A DNA stretch of 64,000 nt from Candidatus Omnitrophota bacterium. Its GTDB lineage: Bacteria > Omnitrophota > Gorgyraeia > JAZDFF01. Numbering within the stretch: position 1 is the stretch's first letter; each line of letters opens with the position of its first letter. The translations under genes were made by a program, and so were the position numbers. This document shows positions 4,757 through 22,687 of the stretch, piece by piece. The notes under the pieces are model-generated. The model saw nothing but the letters and a program-made list of their open reading frames with translations, searched no databases and was not told the DNA's origin. The DNA is taken from positions 37,073 through 101,072 of the forward strand of contig JAZDFF010000031.1 of NCBI GenBank assembly GCA_043808095.1, given 5' to 3'.

Positions 4757-5743
4757 ATGGGAATTAAATGGAAGGATTTCCAGATGCCCAGGAAATTGGA
4801 ATGCGAAGAGTCGAGTTACTCTTCTACCTACGGCAAATTTTTCGCCGAACCTTTTGAAAGGGGTTTTGGCGTAACCCTGGGCAATTCATTACGTAGGATA
4901 TTATTGTCTTCGATTGAAGGCAGTGCCGTCACCTCAATTAAAATTGATGGTGCTTTGCATGAGTTTACCACCATTCCCGGTGTCTTGGAGGATGTAACCG
5001 AGATTATTTTAAATATCAAAAATTTGGTCTTACGTTCTCATTCAAAGAGCCCTAAAACTATTTCAATAAAGGCGTCCAAAAAAGGAGAGGTTTTAGCCAA
5101 GAATATTATCACTGACGAGACTGTTGAGGTAATAAACCCGGACCTTCTTATTGCCACCTTAACTCAGGACACTAATTTTAATTTGGAAATGGAAGTAAGC
5201 CGCGGACGGGGCTATGTTACAGCAGAACAGAATAAAAAGGAAGAGCAGGTTATCGGCGTAGTCCCTATCGATACCGTATTTACCCCCGTAAGAAGAGTTA
5301 ATTTCTTTGTGGAAAACACCCGCATTGGTCAACGCACAGATTATGACAAATTAATTCTGGAAATTACTACTAACGCTAGCATTAATCCTAAAGATGCGCT
5401 TTTATATGCCAGCAACATCTTACAGAGGCATCTTGATGTATTCGTTAATTTCGGGCAATTGCCTGAAGAAGAGGAAGAGGCTGTTAGTAAAGAACAGGAA
5501 GCGTTTTATGAAAAGCTGAGACTGCCTATTTCTGAACTTGAACTTTCCGTGCGGTCATCAAATTGCCTTCAAGAGGCTAATATCAAAACCATTGCGGATT
5601 TAGTGGGAAGGACCGAGGCAGAAATGCTTGGTTTCCGTAATTTCGGTAAAAAATCCTTGGCTGAAATCAACAATATACTAAAGGATATGAATCTTTCTCT
5701 GGGTATGCAGATCGATGCCAAATTACTGGAGAAGAAAGAGTAA
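4757..5743 (+). CDS. rpoA: DNA-directed RNA polymerase subunit alpha
   Basis: The FERGFGVTLGNSLRRILLSS motif and the alpha-CTD are present. The start could instead be the M at 4784. Confidence 0.9.
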   Translation: MGIKWKDFQMPRKLECEESSYSSTYGKFFAEPFERGFGVTLGNSLRRILLSSIEGSAVTSIKIDGALHEFTTIPGVLEDVTEIILNIKNLVLRSHSKSPKTISIKASKKGEVLAKNIITDETVEVINPDLLIATLTQDTNFNLEMEVSRGRGYVTAEQNKKEEQVIGVVPIDTVFTPVRRVNFFVENTRIGQRTDYDKLILEITTNASINPKDALLYASNILQRHLDVFVNFGQLPEEEEEAVSKEQEAFYEKLRLPISELELSVRSSNCLQEANIKTIADLVGRTEAEMLGFRNFGKKSLAEINNILKDMNLSLGMQIDAKLLEKKE

Positions 5744-13502: not shown

Positions 13503-14801
13503 ATGTTTGACCTCACAATCATCGGCGCCGGCTGGGCAGGCTACTCCGCAGCCCTGCGCGCCAAAGAATTAGGTAAGTCCGTCTGCCTGATTGAAAAATC
13601 CGATATCGGCGGCACCTGTCTAAACCGCGGCTGTATCCCCACCAAATTCCTCGTTACTGCTGCAAAACAAATCAGCGCATTTAAAAAAGCGAACTCTTAC
13701 GGGATTGAGGTATCTTCCTATAACCTTGACTTTAAAAAGACCATCGAAAATAAAAACGGGCTGATTGCAAAACAACGCGCTACCATGGAAAATCAGCTAA
13801 AGATTAAAGGAATAGAGGTCATTAAATCAGAAGGCCGGCTCACAGGCCCAAACCGGATAAAGGCAGGTGAAAGGGTTATCGAGTCCAAATACATACTCAT
13901 TGCCACCGGCTCTAAGCCCTTTGAGCTGCCTGACCTGAAATTTGACCGCTCTAAATTCATTTCAAGCGATGAACTCTTGAATCAAAGCAGCATCCCGAAA
14001 ACCTTGCTGATAGTAGGAGGGGGAGTAATCGGCTGCGAATTTGCCAGCATTTTTAACAGCCTGGGCTCCAAGGTAACCATTGTAGAATTATTAGATAGGA
14101 TCCTGCCTACCGAAGACAAAGAGGCCTCAAAGAAGCTCGAAGTAACTCTTAAGAAAAAAGGCATAACTATCCATACTGCAAAAAAAGCCCAGGACCTTAA
14201 TTTGAATGATTTTGAAAAAGTCCTGGTCTGCGTTGGAAGGGCCTCTAACACCAGAGATTTAGGCCTGGATGAGTTAGGAGTAAAAATTAATAAAGGCGCT
14301 ATTTGCGTAAATGAGTATTTAGAAACCAGTATCAAAAATATTTATGCCGCAGGCGATTGTATCGCTGGCTATCAACTTGCCCATGTTGCCGCTTATGAGG
14401 GAAAACTCAGCGTAGATAATATGTTCGGCCAGAAACAAAAAGCTGACTATAGCAGTGTGCCGAGCGCCATATTTACCGAGCCAGAGATTGCAAGTGTCGG
14501 GATAGATGAAGATGAGGCAAAGGCCAAAAATATCGAGATAAAGGTTGCTAAATTTAGCTTTCTTGGCCTTGGCCTTGCCCATATAACCGGCGCAACCGAC
14601 GGCTTTATCAAAATAATTGCCGCCAAACATACCGAAGAAATATTGGGCGCAGTTATCTTTGGCCAATCCGCAACCGAATTAATCGGTAGTCTATCTCTTG
14701 CCATTAGAAATAAGCTCACCATCTCTCAGATTAAAAATACTATTTTCCCGCATCCAACCATCTCCGAATCCATTCTTGAAGCAGTATTGAGAACGCAATA
14801 A
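13503..14801 (+). CDS. lpdA: Dihydrolipoyl dehydrogenase-family flavoprotein disulfide reductase
   Basis: FAD motif GAGWAGY, redox-active GGTCLNRGCIPTK, and a C-terminal dimerisation domain. It is short for Lpd at 432 aa. Confidence 0.7.
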   Translation: MFDLTIIGAGWAGYSAALRAKELGKSVCLIEKSDIGGTCLNRGCIPTKFLVTAAKQISAFKKANSYGIEVSSYNLDFKKTIENKNGLIAKQRATMENQLKIKGIEVIKSEGRLTGPNRIKAGERVIESKYILIATGSKPFELPDLKFDRSKFISSDELLNQSSIPKTLLIVGGGVIGCEFASIFNSLGSKVTIVELLDRILPTEDKEASKKLEVTLKKKGITIHTAKKAQDLNLNDFEKVLVCVGRASNTRDLGLDELGVKINKGAICVNEYLETSIKNIYAAGDCIAGYQLAHVAAYEGKLSVDNMFGQKQKADYSSVPSAIFTEPEIASVGIDEDEAKAKNIEIKVAKFSFLGLGLAHITGATDGFIKIIAAKHTEEILGAVIFGQSATELIGSLSLAIRNKLTISQIKNTIFPHPTISESILEAVLRTQ

Positions 14802-14810
14802 ATGAAACGT

Positions 14811-14925
14811 TTAAGGGATAGCAGGGTATAGAAGGGGATAGTAAGGTATAGAAAGGGATTTTTAAAAACCCTGCTAACCTATCCTGACCCTTGCTAACCC
14901 ATCCTAACCCCTAAACGTAGAGAAT
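14811..14925. repeat. Inverted pair of about 20-nt tandem repeats (GGGATAGCAGGGTATAGAAG x2.3 / CCCTGCTAACCTATCCTGA x2.3)
   Basis: Direct reading of the lpd-lipB intergenic region. The two arms are approximately reverse-complementary. Confidence 0.6.
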
Positions 14926-15579
14926 ATGAGCATTAGAGTTATTGACTTAGGCCTCATAGAGTTTCTTAAAGCCCACAAGATTCAAAAACACCTCGTTGAC
15001 GAACTTAAATCTAATGGCTGGCACGACACTCTAATTATCTGCGAACACCCCCCGACTATTACCCTGGGAAGAAAAACCAGGCTGGAAAATCTACTTGCCG
15101 ACGAGAAAACCTTAAAAGAAAGAAAAATATCGGTCTTTCGCGCTGACAGGGGAGGAGATGTCACCTATCACGGCCCCGGCCAAATCATCGCTTACCCTAT
15201 ATTTGACTTACGCAGGTATAAAAAAGACATCCATTGGTTCCTAAGGAAACTCGAAGAAATCACAATTGATTTTTTATGGCGATATAAGATATCTGGTGAA
15301 AGAAAAAAGGGTTTTACCGGCGTTTGGGTCGGTAATAAAAAAATCGTCTCAATCGGTATCGGCATTTCTAACTGGATAACCTTCCATGGTCTGGCTATAA
15401 ATGTTAAAACTAACTTAGAATATTTTTCCCTGATTAAGCCCTGCGGCCTTAAAGTCGAAATGACTTCAATGGAAGCAATCTCAGGTAAAAATTACAATTT
15501 AACTGAAGTAAAGCCAGTATTATTAAGAACTATTGAACAGGGATTCAACCACCGTTTTACTAATAGTTTACAAAAATGA
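14926..15579 (+). CDS. lipB: Octanoyltransferase LipB
   Basis: LipB motifs RADRGGDVTYHGPGQ and the catalytic-region context. Confidence 0.8.
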   Translation: MSIRVIDLGLIEFLKAHKIQKHLVDELKSNGWHDTLIICEHPPTITLGRKTRLENLLADEKTLKERKISVFRADRGGDVTYHGPGQIIAYPIFDLRRYKKDIHWFLRKLEEITIDFLWRYKISGERKKGFTGVWVGNKKIVSIGIGISNWITFHGLAINVKTNLEYFSLIKPCGLKVEMTSMEAISGKNYNLTEVKPVLLRTIEQGFNHRFTNSLQK

Positions 15580-17189
15580 ATCTACAAGGCGTACTATCTT
15601 ATTTTACTGCTTTTACAAGTTTAATATTAGGAACCGTTGTTTTATTAAAAGATAGAAAACAAACTTTAAATATAACTTGGTTTCTAATGAGCGTTTGTAT
15701 TTCAATCTGGGCAGGATTATACGCATTCATGATAACAGCTTCCAATTATAATTTAGCATTGTTTAGTGCTAGAGTGCTTAATTATAGCGCTATGTTCATA
15801 GCTCCTTTTTATTTACATTTCATCGCCTCACTTTTAAATAAAAATAGAGAATATAAATCCTTTGTTATTTCATCATATTTTGCTTTAGGAGCTCTATTGA
15901 TTGTTACTTTAATTTTTCCTAATTATTTTGTTCCTGATGTTATGCCTAAATTTGGATTTAAGTTTTATACTAAAGCAGGGTTTTTGTTTTATCCCTATTT
16001 CATATTATGGGCTTTTTATATTACTTATGCATTCATAAAATTAATTTTCGAAAGCGGAAAATATAACGATTTTAAACGTAACCAAATTCAGTACATAATT
16101 TTTGCTTCTCTAATTGGTTTTCCGGCCGGAACAACTTCTTTTCTTGCAGTCCTTACTAAAAATATATCTCCTTTTGGGGTGCCGTTCATTTCCTTATATA
16201 CTTTTATAATTAGCTATGCAATCATTAAACATCACCTCATGGACATCAACGTTGTTATCCGGCGAAGCCTTGTTTATTCGATTCTTGCAGCCTTTATTAC
16301 CGTTATTTATCTTATTTTTGTAATTTTGGCGGAAAGGCTTCTTCATACCTTTGTCGGCTACAGTTCTCTTGTACCAACAATATTAGCCGCCTTTACCATT
16401 GCCATTTTATTTATACCTTTAAAAAACAAAATCCAAGCCTTTGTGGACAGAGTTTTCTTTAAAGGCACGCTTGTTACGCTTTCCCAGGATAAAGAGCGCC
16501 TGGAACAAGAGGTGAGGCAGGGAGAAAAGCTCGCTGCCATAGGAAGGCTCGCCGCCGGTATTGCCCATGAAATCAAAAACCCCTTGACTTCAATCAAGAC
16601 CTTTACTGAATTCCTGAATGAAAAATTTGATGAGCCGGATTTCCGCGATAAATTTAAGAGGATAGTAGGAGAGGAGGTAGACAGGATTAATCACATCGTT
16701 AATAGCCTCCTTGACCTTAGCCGTCCAAAACCTCTTAACCTTGAGTCAGTTGATGTGCCTGAAATCATTGAGAATATCTTGAACTTACTTGAACCTGACC
16801 TAAGCCAAGCCCGAATCACCATTAAAAAAGATTTTCAAGACAATCTTTCTCAAATTCCTGCTGATCCTAACCAGCTAAAACAAGCGTTTATCAACCTGAT
16901 TCTAAACGCCAAGGATGCCATGAAAGACTCTCTTCAAAAAGAACTCACCATTAAGACTCGAAAAGTTTCTAATTTTCTTCAAATAGAAATAATTGATACA
17001 GGCTGCGGAATTCCACAGGATAAACTAAATTCCATCTTTGAACCGTTTTATTCTACCAAAGAGAAAGGCACCGGCCTGGGCCTGTCAATCGTCCACTCCA
17101 TCATCCAAGCTCACCATGGTAAGATAGAAGTCAAAAGCACTCCTGCCGTTGGGACGACATTCATTGTATCCTTACCATTCCGACCATAA
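15576..17189 (+). CDS. Sensor histidine kinase with N-terminal 7TM domain (HisKA + HATPase_c)
   Basis: Multiple N-terminal TM helices. H-box AHEIKNPLTSIK and G-boxes GTGLGLSIV are present. Confidence 0.8.
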   Translation: MNLQGVLSYFTAFTSLILGTVVLLKDRKQTLNITWFLMSVCISIWAGLYAFMITASNYNLALFSARVLNYSAMFIAPFYLHFIASLLNKNREYKSFVISSYFALGALLIVTLIFPNYFVPDVMPKFGFKFYTKAGFLFYPYFILWAFYITYAFIKLIFESGKYNDFKRNQIQYIIFASLIGFPAGTTSFLAVLTKNISPFGVPFISLYTFIISYAIIKHHLMDINVVIRRSLVYSILAAFITVIYLIFVILAERLLHTFVGYSSLVPTILAAFTIAILFIPLKNKIQAFVDRVFFKGTLVTLSQDKERLEQEVRQGEKLAAIGRLAAGIAHEIKNPLTSIKTFTEFLNEKFDEPDFRDKFKRIVGEEVDRINHIVNSLLDLSRPKPLNLESVDVPEIIENILNLLEPDLSQARITIKKDFQDNLSQIPADPNQLKQAFINLILNAKDAMKDSLQKELTIKTRKVSNFLQIEIIDTGCGIPQDKLNSIFEPFYSTKEKGTGLGLSIVHSIIQAHHGKIEVKSTPAVGTTFIVSLPFRP

Positions 17190-17264
17190 ACGCAAAAATT
17201 CCTTATCAAAAGTAGTTTCTTGAGATATAATAAATGAAGCCATCCTGACTAGACATCGTGATTT

Positions 17265-17327
17265 GGTCGATTTTCGCTTTTAATTTAAATTTTTGCGTTT
17301 TAGCGGCTTTTTGCGTTTTGGCGGTAA
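17265..17327. repeat. TTTTGCG/CCGCAAA-family intergenic repeat
   Basis: ttttcgcttt...ttttgcgttttagcggctttttgcgttttggcgg. Related copies occur at 7801-7904, 18959-18996, 19384-19418 and 25690-25805. Confidence 0.6.
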
Positions 17328-17352
17328 CAACAATTATTATTAGGAGGAAAAT

Positions 17353-17598
17353 ATGACTAGAGTAATTCTACCAGAACTCGGCGAAGGTATAACTAAGGCC
17401 ACAATAACCAATTGGTATTTTGAAGTAGGCGCCGAAGTAAGGCAGGGGGATGATTTAGTAGAGCTTGCTACCGACAAAGCCACTTTTAATCTACCGGCGC
17501 CTTGCTCCGGTGAGTTAGTTGAGATATTATTCTCTGACGGCGACGACGTCCAGGTAGGCGAAGCCTTGGCAATAATTGAAGAAAACACGGGAGAATAG
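17353..17598 (+). CDS. Stand-alone lipoyl-attachment domain protein (E2-type lipoyl domain, 81 aa)
   Basis: LPELGEGITKATITNWYFEVGAEV...ATDKATFNLPAPCSGEL carries the lipoyl-lysine context TDKA. No E2 catalytic domain follows. Confidence 0.6.
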   Translation: MTRVILPELGEGITKATITNWYFEVGAEVRQGDDLVELATDKATFNLPAPCSGELVEILFSDGDDVQVGEALAIIEENTGE

Positions 17599-17647
17599 GA
17601 GAATAATTAAATAGTTTGTTTTTACAACAAAAAAGTTGTAAAAATGC

Positions 17648-17676
17648 TTGACAAGACAACTTTTATGTTGTATATT
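17648..17676 (+). promoter_or_regulatory. Near-consensus sigma70 promoter (TTGACA, 17 nt spacer, TATATT) with flanking ACAAC/GTTGT inverted repeats
   Basis: ttgaca at 17648-17653 and tatatt at 17671-17676. The palindromes ttacaacaaaaaagttgtaa and acaagacaac...atgttgt sit directly upstream of the AbiEii-like gene. Confidence 0.55.
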
Positions 17677-17683
17677 TTAATCT

Positions 17684-18400
17684 ATGGCAACGCGCATAGA
17701 ATATCTTCAAAACAGGGTCTTAGGGACATTATCGGAAAAGCTTGATGAATTCTATTTAGCAGGCGGAACCGCGTTATCATTATATTATTTTCATCACCGT
17801 CAATCGTTAGATTTGGATTTTTTCGCCCAAAAATTTTCCCAAAAAAGTGTTCGCAACATTATTAGGCAATTATCTTTAGCTCTAAATAAAGAAATTGAAT
17901 TAATTAGCGAGGAATCTCGAAAGAACAGAGTAAAGATAATGGTTTATTCTCTAATCATTGACAGAAAACGCTCGTTAAAATTAGATTTTGTAGAGGACTA
18001 TCTTAAGCTTATCAGGCCTCCTAAGCCGATAAACGGGATAAAGGTTTTATCTCTCGAGGATATTTATCTTAGAAAAATTTATGCCATAACCGGAACACAG
18101 CAAATTGAGACAGATTTAGGCGCAAAAGTGACTCATGGGGGAAGACAAGAGGCAAGGGATTTTTACGATTTATACTGCCTTTCTCAGATTTTTATGAGGC
18201 TATCGGCTTTTTGTTTTAAATTTGGTAACCCTTTAATGCGCGAGGGCATTATTAGATGGTTTCGCACCTATAGCCGTATGGATATAAAAACAGGCCTTCT
18301 TGAATTAAAATTAAAAAAGAGTATCGCCTATCTTGAAATGGAGAGGCATTTTAAAAGAGAGGTCGAGAAGATTATTGAAAAAGAGGTTAGTTCAATATGA
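17684..18400 (+). CDS. AbiEii/AbiGii-like nucleotidyltransferase (DUF1814 family; type IV TA / abortive-infection toxin-like)
   Basis: N-terminal motif LAGGTALSLYYFHHRQSLDLDFF matches the GGTAL...R.S.DlD signature of the AbiEii NTase family. Confidence 0.55.
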   Translation: MATRIEYLQNRVLGTLSEKLDEFYLAGGTALSLYYFHHRQSLDLDFFAQKFSQKSVRNIIRQLSLALNKEIELISEESRKNRVKIMVYSLIIDRKRSLKLDFVEDYLKLIRPPKPINGIKVLSLEDIYLRKIYAITGTQQIETDLGAKVTHGGRQEARDFYDLYCLSQIFMRLSAFCFKFGNPLMREGIIRWFRTYSRMDIKTGLLELKLKKSIAYLEMERHFKREVEKIIEKEVSSI

Positions 18401-18930
18401 AATTAAAAAGTGATTGGCTTTGGGATAGAAAAATTACCCCCCAAAAAGCAAAGTCTATATTAAGCAGGCCCGATGATGCGCATTTTTTGGGTTTGGCAAG
18501 CCTTCTATTGTCTAGAAAGAACTCGCCTCAGGAGGTATTTAAGAATTACATTAAGACAATGGATTTCTTGCAAAATTGGCAGAGAATTAAAAGACAGATG
18601 CGTAAAGACAACTGGAATAATCCACGCATAGAATTCTGGCAGGCCATTTATGAGACATTAAAGAAAAAAAATAAGATAAAAATGGTTAATATTTACAATG
18701 GGGAAGAGTTAACAAAACCAAAAAATGAATTTTATAGGACCATTGCCGATAAATTAAAAATGATCCGAAAACAAAAAGGGATAAGCCAGGGCGAATTAGC
18801 CAAGAGGCTTAAGGTTTCTCAGCAGGCGATTTCGCATATTGAGATGGGCAGAGATAATGCCTCTTTACTTACTCTCAAAAAGATCGTCGATGCCTTGGGC
18901 GCTAAGCTTGATGTGGAGATTTCCGGCTGA
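18397..18930 (+). CDS. XRE-family helix-turn-helix protein (C-terminal Cro/C1 HTH), translationally coupled to the upstream NTase
   Basis: ISQGELAKRLKVSQQAISHIEMGRDNASLLTLKKI is an HTH_XRE domain. The start overlaps the upstream stop (ATGA). Confidence 0.7.
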   Translation: MKLKSDWLWDRKITPQKAKSILSRPDDAHFLGLASLLLSRKNSPQEVFKNYIKTMDFLQNWQRIKRQMRKDNWNNPRIEFWQAIYETLKKKNKIKMVNIYNGEELTKPKNEFYRTIADKLKMIRKQKGISQGELAKRLKVSQQAISHIEMGRDNASLLTLKKIVDALGAKLDVEISG

Positions 18931-18958
18931 GATAGTTCAGGGTTAAAAATCTATTTTA

Positions 18959-18996
18959 CACCGCTAAATCGCAAAAGGCCGCAAAACCGCAAAATA
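18959..18996. repeat. CCGCAAA-family repeat (left inverted arm flanking the GxxExxY gene)
   Basis: ccgctaaatcgcaaaaggccgcaaaaccgcaaaa. The reverse-complement arm lies at 19384-19418. Confidence 0.6.
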
Positions 18997-19004
18997 TCTA
19001 AAAC

Positions 19005-19382
19005 ATGACATTAGAGCAAATCAATGAATTATCAAATAAAATTATCGGTTTTGCTATTAAAGTCCATAAAGCCTTAGGCCCTGGGTTTGTTGAAAAAGTA
19101 TACGTAAAGGCATTAATATTTGAATTAGAGAAAAATAAAATCAAGTTTACGCAAGAAAAATCCATTAAAGTTAAATACGAAAATCTTCTCTTGGGCCAAC
19201 ATAGATTAGATTTCTTAATTGAAGACGAAATCATCCTAGAAATAAAAGCAGTTTATGAGATAAATAATTTCCATATGGCGCAAATGCTTTCCTATTTAAA
19301 AGCTGCTGATAAGAAATTGGGTTTAATTTTGAATTTTTCTAGATCAAAATTAGAAATAAAACGAGTTGCTTATAACTTATAA
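19005..19382 (+). CDS. GxxExxY family protein (PD-(D/E)XK nuclease-like)
   Basis: GxxExxY family pattern: KVHKALGPGFVEKVY, D.LIED.IILEIKAV. Confidence 0.7.
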   Translation: MTLEQINELSNKIIGFAIKVHKALGPGFVEKVYVKALIFELEKNKIKFTQEKSIKVKYENLLLGQHRLDFLIEDEIILEIKAVYEINNFHMAQMLSYLKAADKKLGLILNFSRSKLEIKRVAYNL

Positions 19383-19383
19383 C

Positions 19384-19418
19384 TTTGCGCCTTTGCGGAA
19401 TTTTGCGCCTTTGCGGTG
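19384..19418. repeat. TTTGCGG-family repeat (right inverted arm)
   Basis: ctttgcgcctttgcggaattttgcgcctttgcggtg. Confidence 0.6.
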
Positions 19419-19441
19419 TTTCTTTATTTTTCCTTAAAAGT

Positions 19442-19888
19442 ATGGCAAAGATCCAATCTCAAATCTTAGTTAAAAAGGGACGCGAAGAGATCTTTAACCT
19501 GCTTAAGGATATGGAGCGTTTCCCGGAATTCATGCGCGACGTAAAAAGCCTTCATATCTTAGAGCATGTTGATAATAAACTTATTACCAAATGGCAGATT
19601 GAGATAGAGAATACCGCAATCACCTGGAAGGAAGAGGATGTCTTCGACGACAAAAACTATACTCTAAAGTTTCATATGCTTGAAGGCGACTATCAGGAAT
19701 ACCAGGGCTCCTGGCGCCTCGAGCCGCATTCCGGCACCACCCGGATTAAAATAGACGCTGTCTTTGACTGGGGTATCCCGGTTTTAGAGAGATTTGTCGC
19801 AAATGTCCTTGAGCGTAAAGCCCGGCTTGCATTTGAGGGCATGCTCAAATCTATCAAGAAAAGATTGGAAGTTGATTTGCACAGATGA
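19442..19888 (+). CDS. SRPBCC (START/Bet v1-like, polyketide cyclase/CoxG-type) domain protein
   Basis: Its length of about 148 aa from MAKIQSQ and its sequence are typical of SRPBCC ligand-binding proteins. The stop codon lies inside a CACAGATGA repeat. Confidence 0.5.
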   Translation: MAKIQSQILVKKGREEIFNLLKDMERFPEFMRDVKSLHILEHVDNKLITKWQIEIENTAITWKEEDVFDDKNYTLKFHMLEGDYQEYQGSWRLEPHSGTTRIKIDAVFDWGIPVLERFVANVLERKARLAFEGMLKSIKKRLEVDLHR

Positions 19889-19920
19889 GCGCAGATAAAA
19901 GAACAGATGAGCACAGATTC
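19880..19920. repeat. CACAGATGAGCACAGAT repeat (inverted orientation of the ATCTGTGCTAATCTGTG family)
   Basis: acagatgagcgcagataaaagaacagatgagcacagattc. It overlaps a stop codon and the next start. Confidence 0.6.
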
Positions 19921-20287
19921 TGGAATATATAAAGACCTTACCTACAAAATTATTGGCGTACTTTACGAAGTTCATAATGAGCTTGGGCCAGTTCATAAGG
20001 AGAATATTTATCATAAGGCAGTTGCGATAGAGTTAAAAAGTAAAAATATAAACTTCGATGAAGAAAAATATCTGCCTGTTATGTATAAAGGTCATAAAAT
20101 AGGGATATATAAACCGGATTTCATCATTGAAGATAAGGTTATATTGGAAATTAAAGCAGTCCCCTTATTAACTAAGGCGATGTTTGACCAGATTTATTAT
20201 TATCTTAAAGGCTCCAAATATAAACTGGTATTATTGGCTAATTTCGGATCCAGTAAATTAACTCTAAAACGCCGTATTTATACATAA
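19907..20287 (+). CDS. GxxExxY family protein (PD-(D/E)XK nuclease-like), second paralog
   Basis: EVHNELGPVHKENIYHKA and D.IIEDKVILEIKAV. It is a paralog of the gene at 19005-19382. Confidence 0.7.
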   Translation: MSTDSGIYKDLTYKIIGVLYEVHNELGPVHKENIYHKAVAIELKSKNINFDEEKYLPVMYKGHKIGIYKPDFIIEDKVILEIKAVPLLTKAMFDQIYYYLKGSKYKLVLLANFGSSKLTLKRRIYT

Positions 20288-20346
20288 CATCTGTGCTAAT
20301 CTGTGAAAACACACATTTTAACTATTAATCTGTGCTAATCTGTGTG
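20288..20346. repeat. ATCTGTGCTAATCTGTG-family repeat, two tandem units
   Basis: atctgtgctaatctgtgaaaac...atctgtgctaatctgtgtg. Other copies lie at 10485-10540, 11064-11106, 12412-12454 and 50651-50740. Confidence 0.65.
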
Positions 20347-20369
20347 AAGAATTAAATAACTCAAAACAT

Positions 20370-21470
20370 ATGTCAGATTTCGCCATCATAATTCATCCAA
20401 CAAGCGAAGAACTCCTGCACCGCTACGAGCCGGGAATGAAGAAAAAACCCAGGCAGGTAGTGAAAAAACTTCTCGAATGGATGGCTCCTTTTAAGGCATC
20501 TGATGTAAAGGGTCTGCGCTCTGTTACCGGAAAGACCTTAGACGGATACCTGGTAATGTGCCCGCTCTTAATGGAGCAGATGATTTCCCTAAATCCCCGC
20601 AAGGTGCTTAAGGCAATCGCCAATGCCGGAGAACTCGCCTCTAAATTAGGCGTAAAGATTATCGGATTAGGCGCCTATGCCGCATTAATCGGAAATAAAG
20701 GGCTGGAATTGGCGCAAAAGATAAAGATCCCCATTACTACAGGCGCTGCTTATACCCTGGCAATGATTCCCGAGGCTATTCTTCGGGCGATGAAGATTTT
20801 GGATGTGGAGCCTGAGAAAGCCAAGGTGCTTTTTATCGGTTCCGCTAATAATGTCGTTACTACCTGTATTGATATCCTGGGCCATTCATTTAACCGTATC
20901 TACCTCAATGGCCACCACTCCGAGAGGATTGATAATTATATCCGCCAGCAACGTAAAGACAAAGGTATAAATATAGAAAAAATCAATGACATCAGTGAAG
21001 TCCTGGCCCAGGCTGATGTCATTGTCGTAGCCACAAACAGGATTCCGCCTGCCTTTGATGTCCATAAGTTAAAACCGAAGACAATAGTCTTTGATGTCTC
21101 TTACCCCAGAAAAGTCCCCAATAATCTCCGGGATGATATCCTGGTGATTGACGGCCTGGCAGTCCGTCCCCCGGGTGAGGTTGATTTTAATTTTGATTTT
21201 GGCCTGCCGCGAGGCCTATCTTATCCCTGTATGGCAGAGCCATTAGTCCTGGCATTTGAAAACAGATTTGAGAGTTATTCCCTGGGCAGGGAGATCCCCA
21301 TTGAAAAAGTAAGGGAAATCAGCCGCCTGGCTTCCAAGCACGGCTTTGAAATCGTCGACTTTACCAGCCAAGACAGGCTATTTTCAACCGAGCAGGTAAA
21401 ACAAATAAAAACCAACGCGCAGAAAACCCAAACCTCAAAACGCACCATTTTTTCAACACCGATATTTTAG
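20370..21470 (+). CDS. Putative NAD(P)-binding oxidoreductase (shikimate/quinate dehydrogenase-like Rossmann C-terminal half)
   Basis: KVLFIGSANNVVTT...ADVIVVATNRIPPAFD...IVFDVSYP resembles the AroE-type NAD(P)-binding domain. The N-terminal half is unassigned. Confidence 0.35.
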   Translation: MSDFAIIIHPTSEELLHRYEPGMKKKPRQVVKKLLEWMAPFKASDVKGLRSVTGKTLDGYLVMCPLLMEQMISLNPRKVLKAIANAGELASKLGVKIIGLGAYAALIGNKGLELAQKIKIPITTGAAYTLAMIPEAILRAMKILDVEPEKAKVLFIGSANNVVTTCIDILGHSFNRIYLNGHHSERIDNYIRQQRKDKGINIEKINDISEVLAQADVIVVATNRIPPAFDVHKLKPKTIVFDVSYPRKVPNNLRDDILVIDGLAVRPPGEVDFNFDFGLPRGLSYPCMAEPLVLAFENRFESYSLGREIPIEKVREISRLASKHGFEIVDFTSQDRLFSTEQVKQIKTNAQKTQTSKRTIFSTPIF

Positions 21471-21484
21471 ATTAGGAGTTATTT

Positions 21485-22687
21485 ATGGAAGAGATTAAAA
21501 AAATATTAGATTTTATTGATAGAGTAGGTTTGTATCCGGATATAAAAGCTATTTCTGGATCTGCAACGCCAGAAGTTGTTATAAATGGTAGAAAAACTCT
21601 TCTATTTTCTTCAAATAGTTACTTAGGCATAGCCTCATCCGATAAATTGAAACAAGCTGGTATCGATGCTATAAATAAATACGGGATAGGAACCGCAGGA
21701 GCTCGATTGCTTTCAGGAAATTTAGAAATTCATGTGCAAGTAGAGAAAGAAATAGCAAAATTTAAACACTGTGATGATGCCATTGTATTCAATACCGGCT
21801 ATATGACAAACGTAGGAGCTATTAGTGCAGTTATGAATTTGCCCAAAATTGGCCCTAGTTCATTTTTCAAAGGAACGGGCATCATATTCAGTGACGAGTT
21901 AAATCATGCAAGCATTATTGACGGTTGCAAACTGAGTAATGCCAGTGTGATTATATATAAACATGTAGATATGAAGGATTTGGAAGGAAAACTTCGATGG
22001 CAAAGAAAGAGAAGAAAATTAATTATTACAGATGGAGTATTTAGTATGGATGGCGATATTGCTCCTTTAGATAAAATAGCAGAATTGGCAAAAAAATACA
22101 AAGCAATGGTGATGGTTGACGATGCTCACGCGACAGGAGTTTTAGGAAAAAATGGCAGCGGAACCCCAGAGCATTTTAATCTAACTCAAGACGACATAGA
22201 TATTATGATGGGAACTTTAAGTAAGGCATTGGCTGGTGCTGGTGGTTATGTAGCTGGTAAAAAAGACTTGATTAGATATCTGAGAGTAACAAGTAGGCCT
22301 TACATCTTCTCAACTTCAATGCCTGCTAGCAATTCTGCGGCGGTTATTGCAGCTATAAGAGAAATCAAAGACCACCCAGAATTAATAAGAAGGTTATGGG
22401 AAAATGCTAATCAGTTAAGAGAAGGCTTTAAAGAACGAGGGTTTAATACCTTAAAAAGCCAGTCCCAAATTATACCTGTATTAATAGGTGAAGAAAAAAA
22501 GGCCATAGAAGCTGCAAGGATACTTTTTGAAAGAGGTTTTTTTGCTCCCTGCGTGCGTTGGCCAGCAGTGGCTAAAGGTCAAGCGAGGATTAGGTTTACA
22601 GTTATGGCTTCACATTCAGAGCATCAGATAAATCTCCTTTTGGATGAATTTAGCAAGATTAGTAAAGAATTAGGAATTATCAATTAA
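21485..22687 (+). CDS. Alpha-oxoamine synthase family PLP enzyme (BioF/Kbl/SPT/CqsA-LqsA-like)
   Basis: Class II aminotransferase motifs DELNHASIIDG, DDAHATGVLG and the PLP-lysine context GTLSKALAG. Confidence 0.8.
   Translation: MEEIKKILDFIDRVGLYPDIKAISGSATPEVVINGRKTLLFSSNSYLGIASSDKLKQAGIDAINKYGIGTAGARLLSGNLEIHVQVEKEIAKFKHCDDAIVFNTGYMTNVGAISAVMNLPKIGPSSFFKGTGIIFSDELNHASIIDGCKLSNASVIIYKHVDMKDLEGKLRWQRKRRKLIITDGVFSMDGDIAPLDKIAELAKKYKAMVMVDDAHATGVLGKNGSGTPEHFNLTQDDIDIMMGTLSKALAGAGGYVAGKKDLIRYLRVTSRPYIFSTSMPASNSAAVIAAIREIKDHPELIRRLWENANQLREGFKERGFNTLKSQSQIIPVLIGEEKKAIEAARILFERGFFAPCVRWPAVAKGQARIRFTVMASHSEHQINLLLDEFSKISKELGIIN

Follow-up and report, generated by a model that had tools for sequence, protein, structure and literature searches.

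A conserved toxin-first cassette from Candidatus Omnitrophota probably pairs an AbiEii-family nucleotidyltransferase with a new family of repressor-antitoxins

Toxins of the widespread DUF1814 family, among them AbiEii and MenT1-4, are partnered by structurally diverse antitoxins (PMC11375011; bioRxiv 10.64898/2026.01.19.700257), and the account of how they are neutralized is under revision, from 'type IV' antagonism to antitoxin-induced auto-phosphorylation. Here we describe a two-gene cassette in a 64,000-nucleotide stretch of DNA from a Candidatus Omnitrophota bacterium (contig JAZDFF010000031.1; the whole stretch is referred to below as the window), in which a gene for a 238-amino acid (aa) nucleotidyltransferase (NTase) of the AbiEii/DUF1814 (MenT-like) type, the presumed toxin (17684-18400), is followed by a gene for a 177-aa partner (18397-18930) that joins an N-terminal helical domain to a C-terminal XRE-type helix-turn-helix (HTH) domain. 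Both genes, and all promoter, operator and translation signals described below, lie on the forward strand, and the two reading frames share the four bases ATGA (18397-18400), in which the NTase stop codon overlaps the partner start codon. From its sequence features and those of its relatives, we argue that the cassette is probably a toxin-first module of the toxin-antitoxin type, of the AbiE/MenAT kind, with a new family of repressor-antitoxin. What is new is a partner domain family for a known toxin family, a conserved, doubly operated promoter and a probable leaderless start; the toxin-first order is unusual yet precedented, and the surprise is limited, since partner swapping is common among toxin-antitoxin systems. 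The N-terminal domain of the partner is the important new element, and the probable leaderless toxin start was absent from the first-pass annotation of this DNA, which had reported the gene pair and its promoter.

In the NTase, which contains LAGGTALSLYYFHHRQSLDLDFF, residues 16-211 align with positions 8-192 of the Pfam PF08843 (AbiEii) profile; the protein scores 70.3 bits, above the cutoff of 22.5 (E 3e-19). Its first-pass assignment to DUF1814/AbiEii is thereby borne out, and profile searches did not place it in an unrelated family. NCBI labels it 'AbiEii/AbiGii toxin family protein', and the 19 PADLOC models that match it (best E 1.8e-11) are all AbiEii-named; DUF2204 and DUF6036, two other NTase families, gave sub-threshold matches only, and a PHROG search gave none. 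Across an alignment of 30 homologs (50-68% identity), G27, G28, S41, D43, D45, D101, K131, D159 and D162 are invariant, and position 158 is R or K. Motifs I-IV of AbiEii, defined as hG[G/S], DhD, a basic motif III and +DxxD (PMC3985639, Dy 2014), can be assigned to G27-G28 (I), the catalytic Asp pair D43-L-D45 (II), K131 (III) and R158-D159-F-Y-D162 (IV). The sole PDB relative detected by sequence profile, 4o8s/4ok0, is a weak match (E 0.015) that aligns the same motifs. As judged from these alignments, the protein is an AbiEii/DUF1814 NTase with intact catalytic motifs.

The invariant S41 is separated from the first catalytic Asp by a single residue (S41-L-D43). By motif position rather than by structural superposition, it corresponds to MenT1 T39 (with D41), MenT3 S78 and Streptococcus agalactiae AbiEii T65 (with D67/D69), each a site of antitoxin-dependent auto-phosphorylation (PMC11375011; bioRxiv 10.64898/2026.01.19.700257); on the same basis, MenT1 T39-x-D41, K137 and D152 have counterparts in S41-x-D43, K131 and D159/D162. 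S41 is thus a possible phospho-acceptor, and that it is actually phosphorylated is a suggestion that we make tentatively, by analogy.

The pairing of the two genes is conserved. Searches returned 321 full-length relatives of the partner (∼176 aa), of which those with a named source come from Candidatus Omnitrophota and Schekmanbacteria metagenome-assembled genomes. A partner-anchored scan, restricted to one genome per species, yielded 40 loci, mostly from Omnitrophota but also from Elusimicrobiota, WOR-1/Saganbacteria and Thermodesulfovibrionia. An AbiEii homolog is encoded directly upstream, on the same strand, in 35 of these; the other five comprise a locus with an NTase remnant (L016), two loci at contig ends (L009, L040) and two in which the partner stands alone (L007, L030). 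The reciprocal, NTase-anchored set held 80 metagenome loci, and the partner lies directly downstream in all 67 with enough downstream sequence; 11 end at contig boundaries, and two distant NTases (32-34% identity) lack a partner. The gene order in the window, NTase before partner, is shared by all 102 paired loci that we examined, and in every locus the genes meet at ATGA, at TAATG or within a few nucleotides. Flanking genes are not conserved, only NTase and partner genes forming locus-spanning clusters among the 40 loci, which argues that the pair is an autonomous unit. In the literature searched, we found no description of an AbiEii-XRE pairing or of the partner N-terminal domain, and among the common pairs in TASmania, AbiEi_4.AbiEii is the only one that involves AbiEii. 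The two solo partners (L007, 4992-5516; L030, ∼5001-5516) may be orphan antitoxin or repressor copies; upstream of the one in L007 is a gene for a 952-aa protein that carries a Walker-A-like motif, GAGTGKT.

The N-terminal domain (aa 1-96, 18397-18684) is all-helical, previously undescribed and presumed to be the NTase-binding (antitoxin) module. Residues 1-115 of the partner have no Pfam or NCBIfam match at E≤1, and outside the HTH region no family was found in Pfam, NCBIfam, PADLOC or PHROGs. The first-pass annotation had noted an unassigned N-terminal domain of 120 aa; unassigned it is, but the conserved domain spans only ∼96 residues, the remainder being a poorly modeled linker. AlphaFold predicts an all-helical full-length partner (predicted local distance difference test score, pLDDT, 81.4; ∼90 across the N-terminal domain) with a disordered linker at residues 100-106, and the N-terminal domain modeled alone is again all-helical (pLDDT 72.6). 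Against the PDB, sequence profiles returned chance-level matches only (E > 0.2), and Foldseek returned nothing below E=1. Within the family, the domain is better conserved than the HTH, with 25 invariant columns and the signature DWLWD...LLSRKN.P.EVF...NW..IK..MRK..WN.PRIEFWQAIY; its alignment contains no conserved Cys, no invariant His and no R-x4-6-H motif.

An exhaustive profile search of 1.84 billion cluster representatives located this domain in 122 proteins, at the N-terminus every time and in three forms: joined to an HTH (∼175 aa), alone (84-98 aa), or at the head of long fusions (320-1300 aa). Of the HTH-less proteins, five of 84-95 aa were examined (P0331, P0339, P0350, P0320 and P0356), and each is encoded directly 3′ of an AbiEii gene, its start codon overlapping the stop codon of that gene. 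Since the versions that have no HTH still directly follow the AbiEii gene, the N-terminal domain is a module linked to the NTase; this linkage is our strongest evidence that the domain is NTase-specific and the HTH an add-on. Cassettes of this kind (L121-L130; e.g. L123, 2282-3267, and L128, 2319-3288) consist of an AbiEii NTase gene followed by a gene for an 84-95-aa N-terminal-domain protein, and the pair in L128 adjoins genes for a tyrosine integrase, ParA and a PIN-MazE pair.

These HTH-less proteins bear directly on the possibility that the NTase is a regulated, non-toxic enzyme. On that account the HTH protein is a mere repressor of a housekeeping or stress NTase (acting in RNA tailing or small-molecule modification), while the N-terminal domain serves in ligand sensing or oligomerization and never touches the NTase. 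The support that sequence gives, in the form of the conserved operators described below, covers regulation only, and the dissimilarity of the domain to known antitoxins and the solo partners of L007 and L030 would both suit such a repressor. However, a pure regulator domain would not be expected to persist without its DNA-binding domain directly after AbiEii genes (5/5), a search of the 1.84 billion representatives did not turn up the domain in any other gene context, and all DUF1814 members in the papers cited here act as toxins. We consider the regulated-enzyme account improbable, and a direct interaction between the NTase and the N-terminal domain, as suggested by the gene linkage, likely.

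The long forms raise further alternatives. In one sub-branch the partner is fused to ∼1000 residues (580-1030) with Mrr-like nuclease, TPR and PIN-like regions: the extensions match the Mrr_cat restriction-endonuclease domain (E 1e-6), TPR repeats and, weakly, the PIN domain of TPR-GreAB-C-PIN conflict systems. Six loci encode such fusions (L016, 1304-4888; L017, 5001-8615; L021, 5007-8630; L024, 4978-8190; L025, 4998-7265; L038, 5001-8573), and the AbiEii gene still precedes the fusion in five of them, L016 retaining an NTase gene remnant only. Two longer fusions, P0312 (1307 aa) and P0336 (1249 aa), have C-terminal regions without a Pfam match.

Fusion to effector-like domains could indicate that the roles are reversed, as in MNT-HEPN (MntA-HepT) systems, such that the NTase is a neutralizer, or a signaling or modifying enzyme, acting on a downstream protein that is itself the effector. 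It is generally known that MNT-HEPN systems have this order, an NTase followed by a small helical protein, which together with the Mrr_cat, TPR and weak PIN-TPR-GreABC matches of the six fusions is what speaks for the reversal. Yet the partner contains neither the R-x4-6-H motif of HEPN proteins nor an invariant His, no HEPN match was obtained in Pfam or by Foldseek, and no catalytic domain is present in the 177-aa form. Autoregulation through an HTH is, moreover, a typical antitoxin trait, and the NTase belongs to AbiEii/DUF1814, whose studied members are toxins, rather than to DUF2204 or DUF6036. The partner as a HEPN-like toxin was rejected for want of the R-x4-6-H motif, and we regard role reversal in general as quite improbable. 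The same Mrr-TPR-PIN variants, together with the HTH-less pair beside an integrase, ParA and a PIN-MazE pair, might instead mark the cassette as the regulatory or sensor core of a larger, variable defense system, whose killing module is fused or encoded elsewhere and whose NTase generates a signal or modifies a target; but no third gene is conserved beside the pair in the 40 loci and most copies are strict two-gene units, and this explanation seems very improbable.

Within the toxin-antitoxin interpretation, a speculative extension would accommodate all three forms: the ∼96-residue domain could be a new antitoxin or adaptor fold dedicated to DUF1814 NTases and unrelated to AbiEi or MenA, neutralizing them, for example, through Ser41 auto-phosphorylation, and serving as a portable 'NTase handle' that is carried on an XRE repressor, stands free, or is attached to Mrr-TPR-PIN arrays. 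Were this so, the cassette would represent the core of an Omnitrophota-centered family of conflict systems, with the toxin:antitoxin ratio governed by leaderless expression of the toxin cistron.

At the other end of the partner, the XRE/HTH_3 domain (aa 116-172, 18742-18912; recognition helix SQQAISHIE) is presumed to be an operator-binding repressor. The Pfam HTH_3 match covers residues 120-172 (58.9 bits against a cutoff of 23, E 4.9e-16), NCBI labels the protein 'helix-turn-helix transcriptional regulator', and the PADLOC 'Control_protein' model matches it (E 8.8e-9). Its closest solved structures are the restriction-modification controller proteins C.BclI, C.Esp1396I and C.AhdI, together with HipB and ClgR; the Foldseek superposition on C.BclI has a root-mean-square deviation of 0.8-0.9 Å across ∼60 residues. 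The XRE-type HTH protein that the first-pass annotation placed downstream of the NTase, with an ATGA overlap, therefore stands, and its position is kept in essentially all relatives.

Upstream of the NTase gene lies a sigma-70-type promoter (17648-17676) made up of TTGACA (17648-17653), a 17-nt spacer and TATATT (17671-17676). It matches the consensus at 11 of 12 positions and is the top site in 16500-20500; the match alone is weak evidence, since the scan as a whole was not enriched (14 promoter-like sites versus 11.0 ± 3.1 expected). Two inverted repeats accompany it. The distal operator O1 (17619-17644), TTTTTACAAC-aaaaaa-GTTGTAAAAA, has 10-nt arms that are 100% complementary and a core ACAAC-N6-GTTGT at 17624-17639, and is centered ∼50 bp upstream of the inferred transcription start. 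The proximal operator O2 (17656-17671), ACAACTTTTATGTTGT, matches ACAAC-N6-GTTGT exactly and fills the promoter spacer, its last T being the first base of the -10 hexamer. Allowing up to one mismatch, O1 and O2 are the only two ACAAC-N6-GTTGT sites in the window and both are exact, a count that is not in itself significant, since ∼0.94 matches are expected and at least two occurred in 20 of 100 shuffles.

The comparison of homologous loci is more telling. When 96 homologous upstream regions (89 distinct) were anchored on the -35 hexamer, the upstream consensus was tt.acAac.tatAa.TTgtAaa.tacTTGACAAtACAACtTaTATgtTGTATA.TT, and the operator consensus of the 89 distinct promoters was TACAAC-N6-GTTGTA ... 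TTGACAAtACAACtTaTATgtTGTATAaT. Of 100 homologous loci, 92 have a promoter that keeps the 17-nt spacer and matches the consensus at 10 or more of 12 positions. With up to two mismatches, O1 recurs in 71 of the 89 promoters and O2 in 66; shuffled sequences reach this match level in 0.9% of cases. Counted from where the -35 element starts, O1 is found at -23 ± 1 and O2 always at +8 nt. The centers of the two operators are 31-32 bp apart. Because the same promoter and operators recur at fixed positions in homologous loci, the palindromes are more than chance occurrences, and because O2 abuts the -10 element, its occupancy should exclude RNA polymerase. In the HTH-less loci, the ACAAC-N6-GTTGT motif is absent, the best match having 3-5 mismatches.

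Operator sequence also follows the recognition helix of the partner: SQQxxS(R/H) helices go with ACAAC/GTTGT half-sites, and SQQ(S/T)IS(F/Y/L/M) helices with TACCAAT/ATTGGTA or TACTA/TAGTA. The clade with the altered helix (L036, L037, L070, L079, L081, L082, L085, L093 and L104, read from the promoters upstream of the NTase) looks like a natural switch of repressor and operator specificity. The first-pass annotation had seen both the TTGACA-17-TATATT promoter and overlapping palindromes, as expected for autoregulation; the promoter is present and recurrent, and the conservation of the palindromes, with their apparent tracking of the recognition helix, lends that expectation support. The partner very probably represses its own promoter through O1 and O2.

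The position of the promoter has consequences for translation. In the window, the NTase ATG (17684) follows the -10 hexamer after only 7 nt (ttaatct), with no Shine-Dalgarno sequence, and an in-frame TAA (17678-17680) means that the open reading frame (ORF) cannot start further upstream; the inferred leaderless start lies within 17677-17686. Among the 89 promoters, the ATG follows the -10 hexamer by 6 nt in 41 and by 6-9 nt in 63. A Shine-Dalgarno-like 4-mer precedes the NTase gene in 4 of 84 cases, versus 65 of 84 for the partner gene (at -18 to -5); in the window the latter is AAGAGG (18381-18386), which lies within the NTase coding sequence near its 3′ end and is spaced 10 nt from the partner ATG (18397). 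With so short a distance (6-7 nt) between the -10 element and the ATG, and no Shine-Dalgarno sequence, the NTase mRNA is probably leaderless, its transcription start being placed from sequence, and the partner cistron is probably Shine-Dalgarno-driven. In the HTH-less loci L121-L130, a -10-like element is still found a few bases 5′ of the NTase ATG.

Taken together, these features suggest the following scheme. Partner dimers would bind O1 and O2 and silence the strong promoter, a form of negative autoregulation. With transcripts that begin no more than a few bases from its ATG, the NTase would be translated as a leaderless cistron lacking a Shine-Dalgarno sequence. Translation of the partner would use a Shine-Dalgarno sequence of its own, located near the end of the NTase coding sequence, so that the partner would be made in excess of the NTase despite the toxin-first order. 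The N-terminal domain would bind the NTase and hold it inactive by sequestration, by induced auto-phosphorylation of Ser41 in the S-x-D-x-D loop, or by both; for MenT1, a single helix of MenA1 suffices to induce toxin phosphorylation (PMC11375011). Loss or titration of the partner, for example through proteolysis, transcription shut-off or phage infection, would free the NTase, which would then add nucleotides to cellular RNA, most likely to tRNA 3′ ends by analogy with MenT, halting translation and growth.

Several observations weigh against this interpretation. The N-terminal domain resembles no known antitoxin in the Foldseek comparison with the PDB or in the PDB profile search, and it is its gene neighborhood alone that suggests its presumed antitoxin role. 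L007 and L030 encode a partner without an NTase, and the fusion of the partner to ∼1000 residues of Mrr-like nuclease, TPR and PIN-like regions fits a simple antidote poorly. The covariation of operator and recognition helix is seen in one clade or a few and is phylogenetically confounded, and a leaderless start presupposes that transcription is driven from the consensus promoter. Finally, no partner relative was found on viral contigs (IMG/VR). A role in phage defense appears somewhat unlikely to us. A phage origin of the cassette was rejected, with no partner relative in IMG/VR contigs and no PHROG match for the NTase.

Of the characterized systems, AbiE (AbiEi-AbiEii; Lactococcus and S. agalactiae), first classed as type IV and now proposed as type VII, shares the toxin family (PF08843), motifs I-IV and the S/T-x-D-x-D loop, a bicistronic operon, a partner that combines DNA binding with a second domain, and two inverted repeats over the promoter, as expected for negative autoregulation; in AbiE, promoter inverted repeats mediate autoregulation by AbiEi (PMC3985639, PMC7319586). 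In contrast to AbiE, the cassette has its genes in reverse order, a C-terminal XRE HTH where AbiEi has an N-terminal winged HTH, operators that are 16-bp ACAAC-N6-GTTGT dyads rather than 23-bp repeats, and an mRNA that is probably leaderless. The partner gave no AbiEi/COG5340 family match in Pfam, NCBIfam or PADLOC at E≤1, and no PDB sequence or Foldseek match to the AbiEi/Rv2827c structures. A canonical AbiEi-AbiEii pair is thereby ruled out on both of its defining features, the partner not being COG5340/AbiEi and the gene order being reversed.

The first-pass annotation had pointed to this reversal relative to known AbiE pairs. Canonical AbiE and COG4861-COG4849 pairs do have the regulator gene first (PMC3985639) and the NTase precedes in all the paired loci studied here, but there is a precedent within DUF1814 for putting the toxin first: according to a 2026 preprint (bioRxiv 10.64898/2026.01.19.700257), the RlegA gene lies downstream of that for RlegT, and both SanaTA and RlegTA affect phage T7. 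RlegTA, SanaTA and SdenTA thus resemble the cassette in their DUF1814 NTase toxin, and RlegTA also in its gene order; as described, their antitoxins are COG5340-like, or distantly so, whereas the cassette partner is not. Among MenAT systems (M. tuberculosis MenT1-4, tRNA nucleotidyltransferases) the likeness lies in the DUF1814 toxin and in the diversity of antitoxins, which include the small helical MenA1 and which induce auto-phosphorylation. MenA genes, however, lie upstream, MenA1 has no DNA-binding domain, MenA3 and MenA4 are AbiEi-like, and no sequence relation of any of them to the cassette partner was detected. The three DUF1814 pairs RlegTA, SanaTA and SdenTA were reportedly found by shotgun cloning (Sberro 2013).

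In overall architecture, the cassette has parallels among type II systems. MqsRA and HigBA have the toxin gene first, an antitoxin with a C-terminal XRE-type HTH, and repression of their own promoter via palindromes, and MqsA has a separate N-terminal toxin-binding part. MqsRA therefore parallels the cassette in plan, with unrelated domains: the toxins of MqsRA and HigBA are RNases rather than NTases, and the MqsA N-terminus is zinc-binding (CxxC), unlike the all-helical cassette domain without conserved Cys. Weak, sub-threshold matches to the MqsA_antitoxin HTH occur in relatives of the partner. The controller proteins C.BclI, C.AhdI and C.Esp1396I, besides providing the closest HTH structures, also resemble the cassette in operator layout, with two dyads beside or within the promoter of the operon that encodes the regulator, and C-protein transcripts are often leaderless. 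The cassette differs in having no restriction or methylase genes nearby and in the extra N-terminal domain of its partner, and activation, unlike in C-protein systems, is probably unneeded at a promoter that is near-consensus.

The cassette adds a third partner family, unrelated to the others, which is encoded strictly after its toxin and whose domain exists both joined to an HTH and free of one; this would provide a natural test of whether any small binder switches DUF1814 NTases to self-inactivation. Toxin-first operons also face a stoichiometry problem, to which a leaderless toxin cistron and a Shine-Dalgarno-led antitoxin cistron behind a strong, doubly operated promoter may be an answer, one with phylogenetic support. 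The linkage further supplies a function-linked annotation for several hundred proteins of the little-studied groups Omnitrophota, Elusimicrobiota, Saganbacteria/WOR-1 and Thermodesulfovibrionia now labeled 'helix-turn-helix transcriptional regulator'.

The first-pass annotation had placed the pair in a small island with other accessory genes. Two PDDEXK_3 genes and an SRPBCC gene, identified by profile search, do lie 3′ of the cassette; the compositional side is less clear, GC content being ∼36% versus ∼42-46% in some flanks of a window that is itself heterogeneous. The PDDEXK_3 (GxxExxY-type) genes (19005-19382 and 19907-20287) each sit between their own short inverted repeats (18960-20345), the first with CCGCAAAA-type repeats upstream and TTTGCGG-type repeats downstream, the second with CACAGAT-type upstream and ATCTGTG-type downstream, which suggests small mobile or intervening-sequence-like cassettes. 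Between them lies the SRPBCC/polyketide-cyclase gene, whose true start is probably the ATG at 19444. Judged by eye, the genes surrounding this region appear to be metabolic and signaling genes. From their translations, we take the ORFs at 13503-17598 to include dihydrolipoyl dehydrogenase-like, octanoyltransferase (LipB)-like and histidine-kinase-like ones; an ORF at 21485-22687 presumably encodes an 8-amino-7-oxononanoate-synthase-type enzyme. The 81-aa ORF just upstream of the cassette (17353-17598) presumably encodes a lipoyl/biotinyl-carrier domain, and over its stop codon, immediately before the operator region, lies a direct tandem repeat, GGAGAATA GGAGAATA, at 17590-17605.

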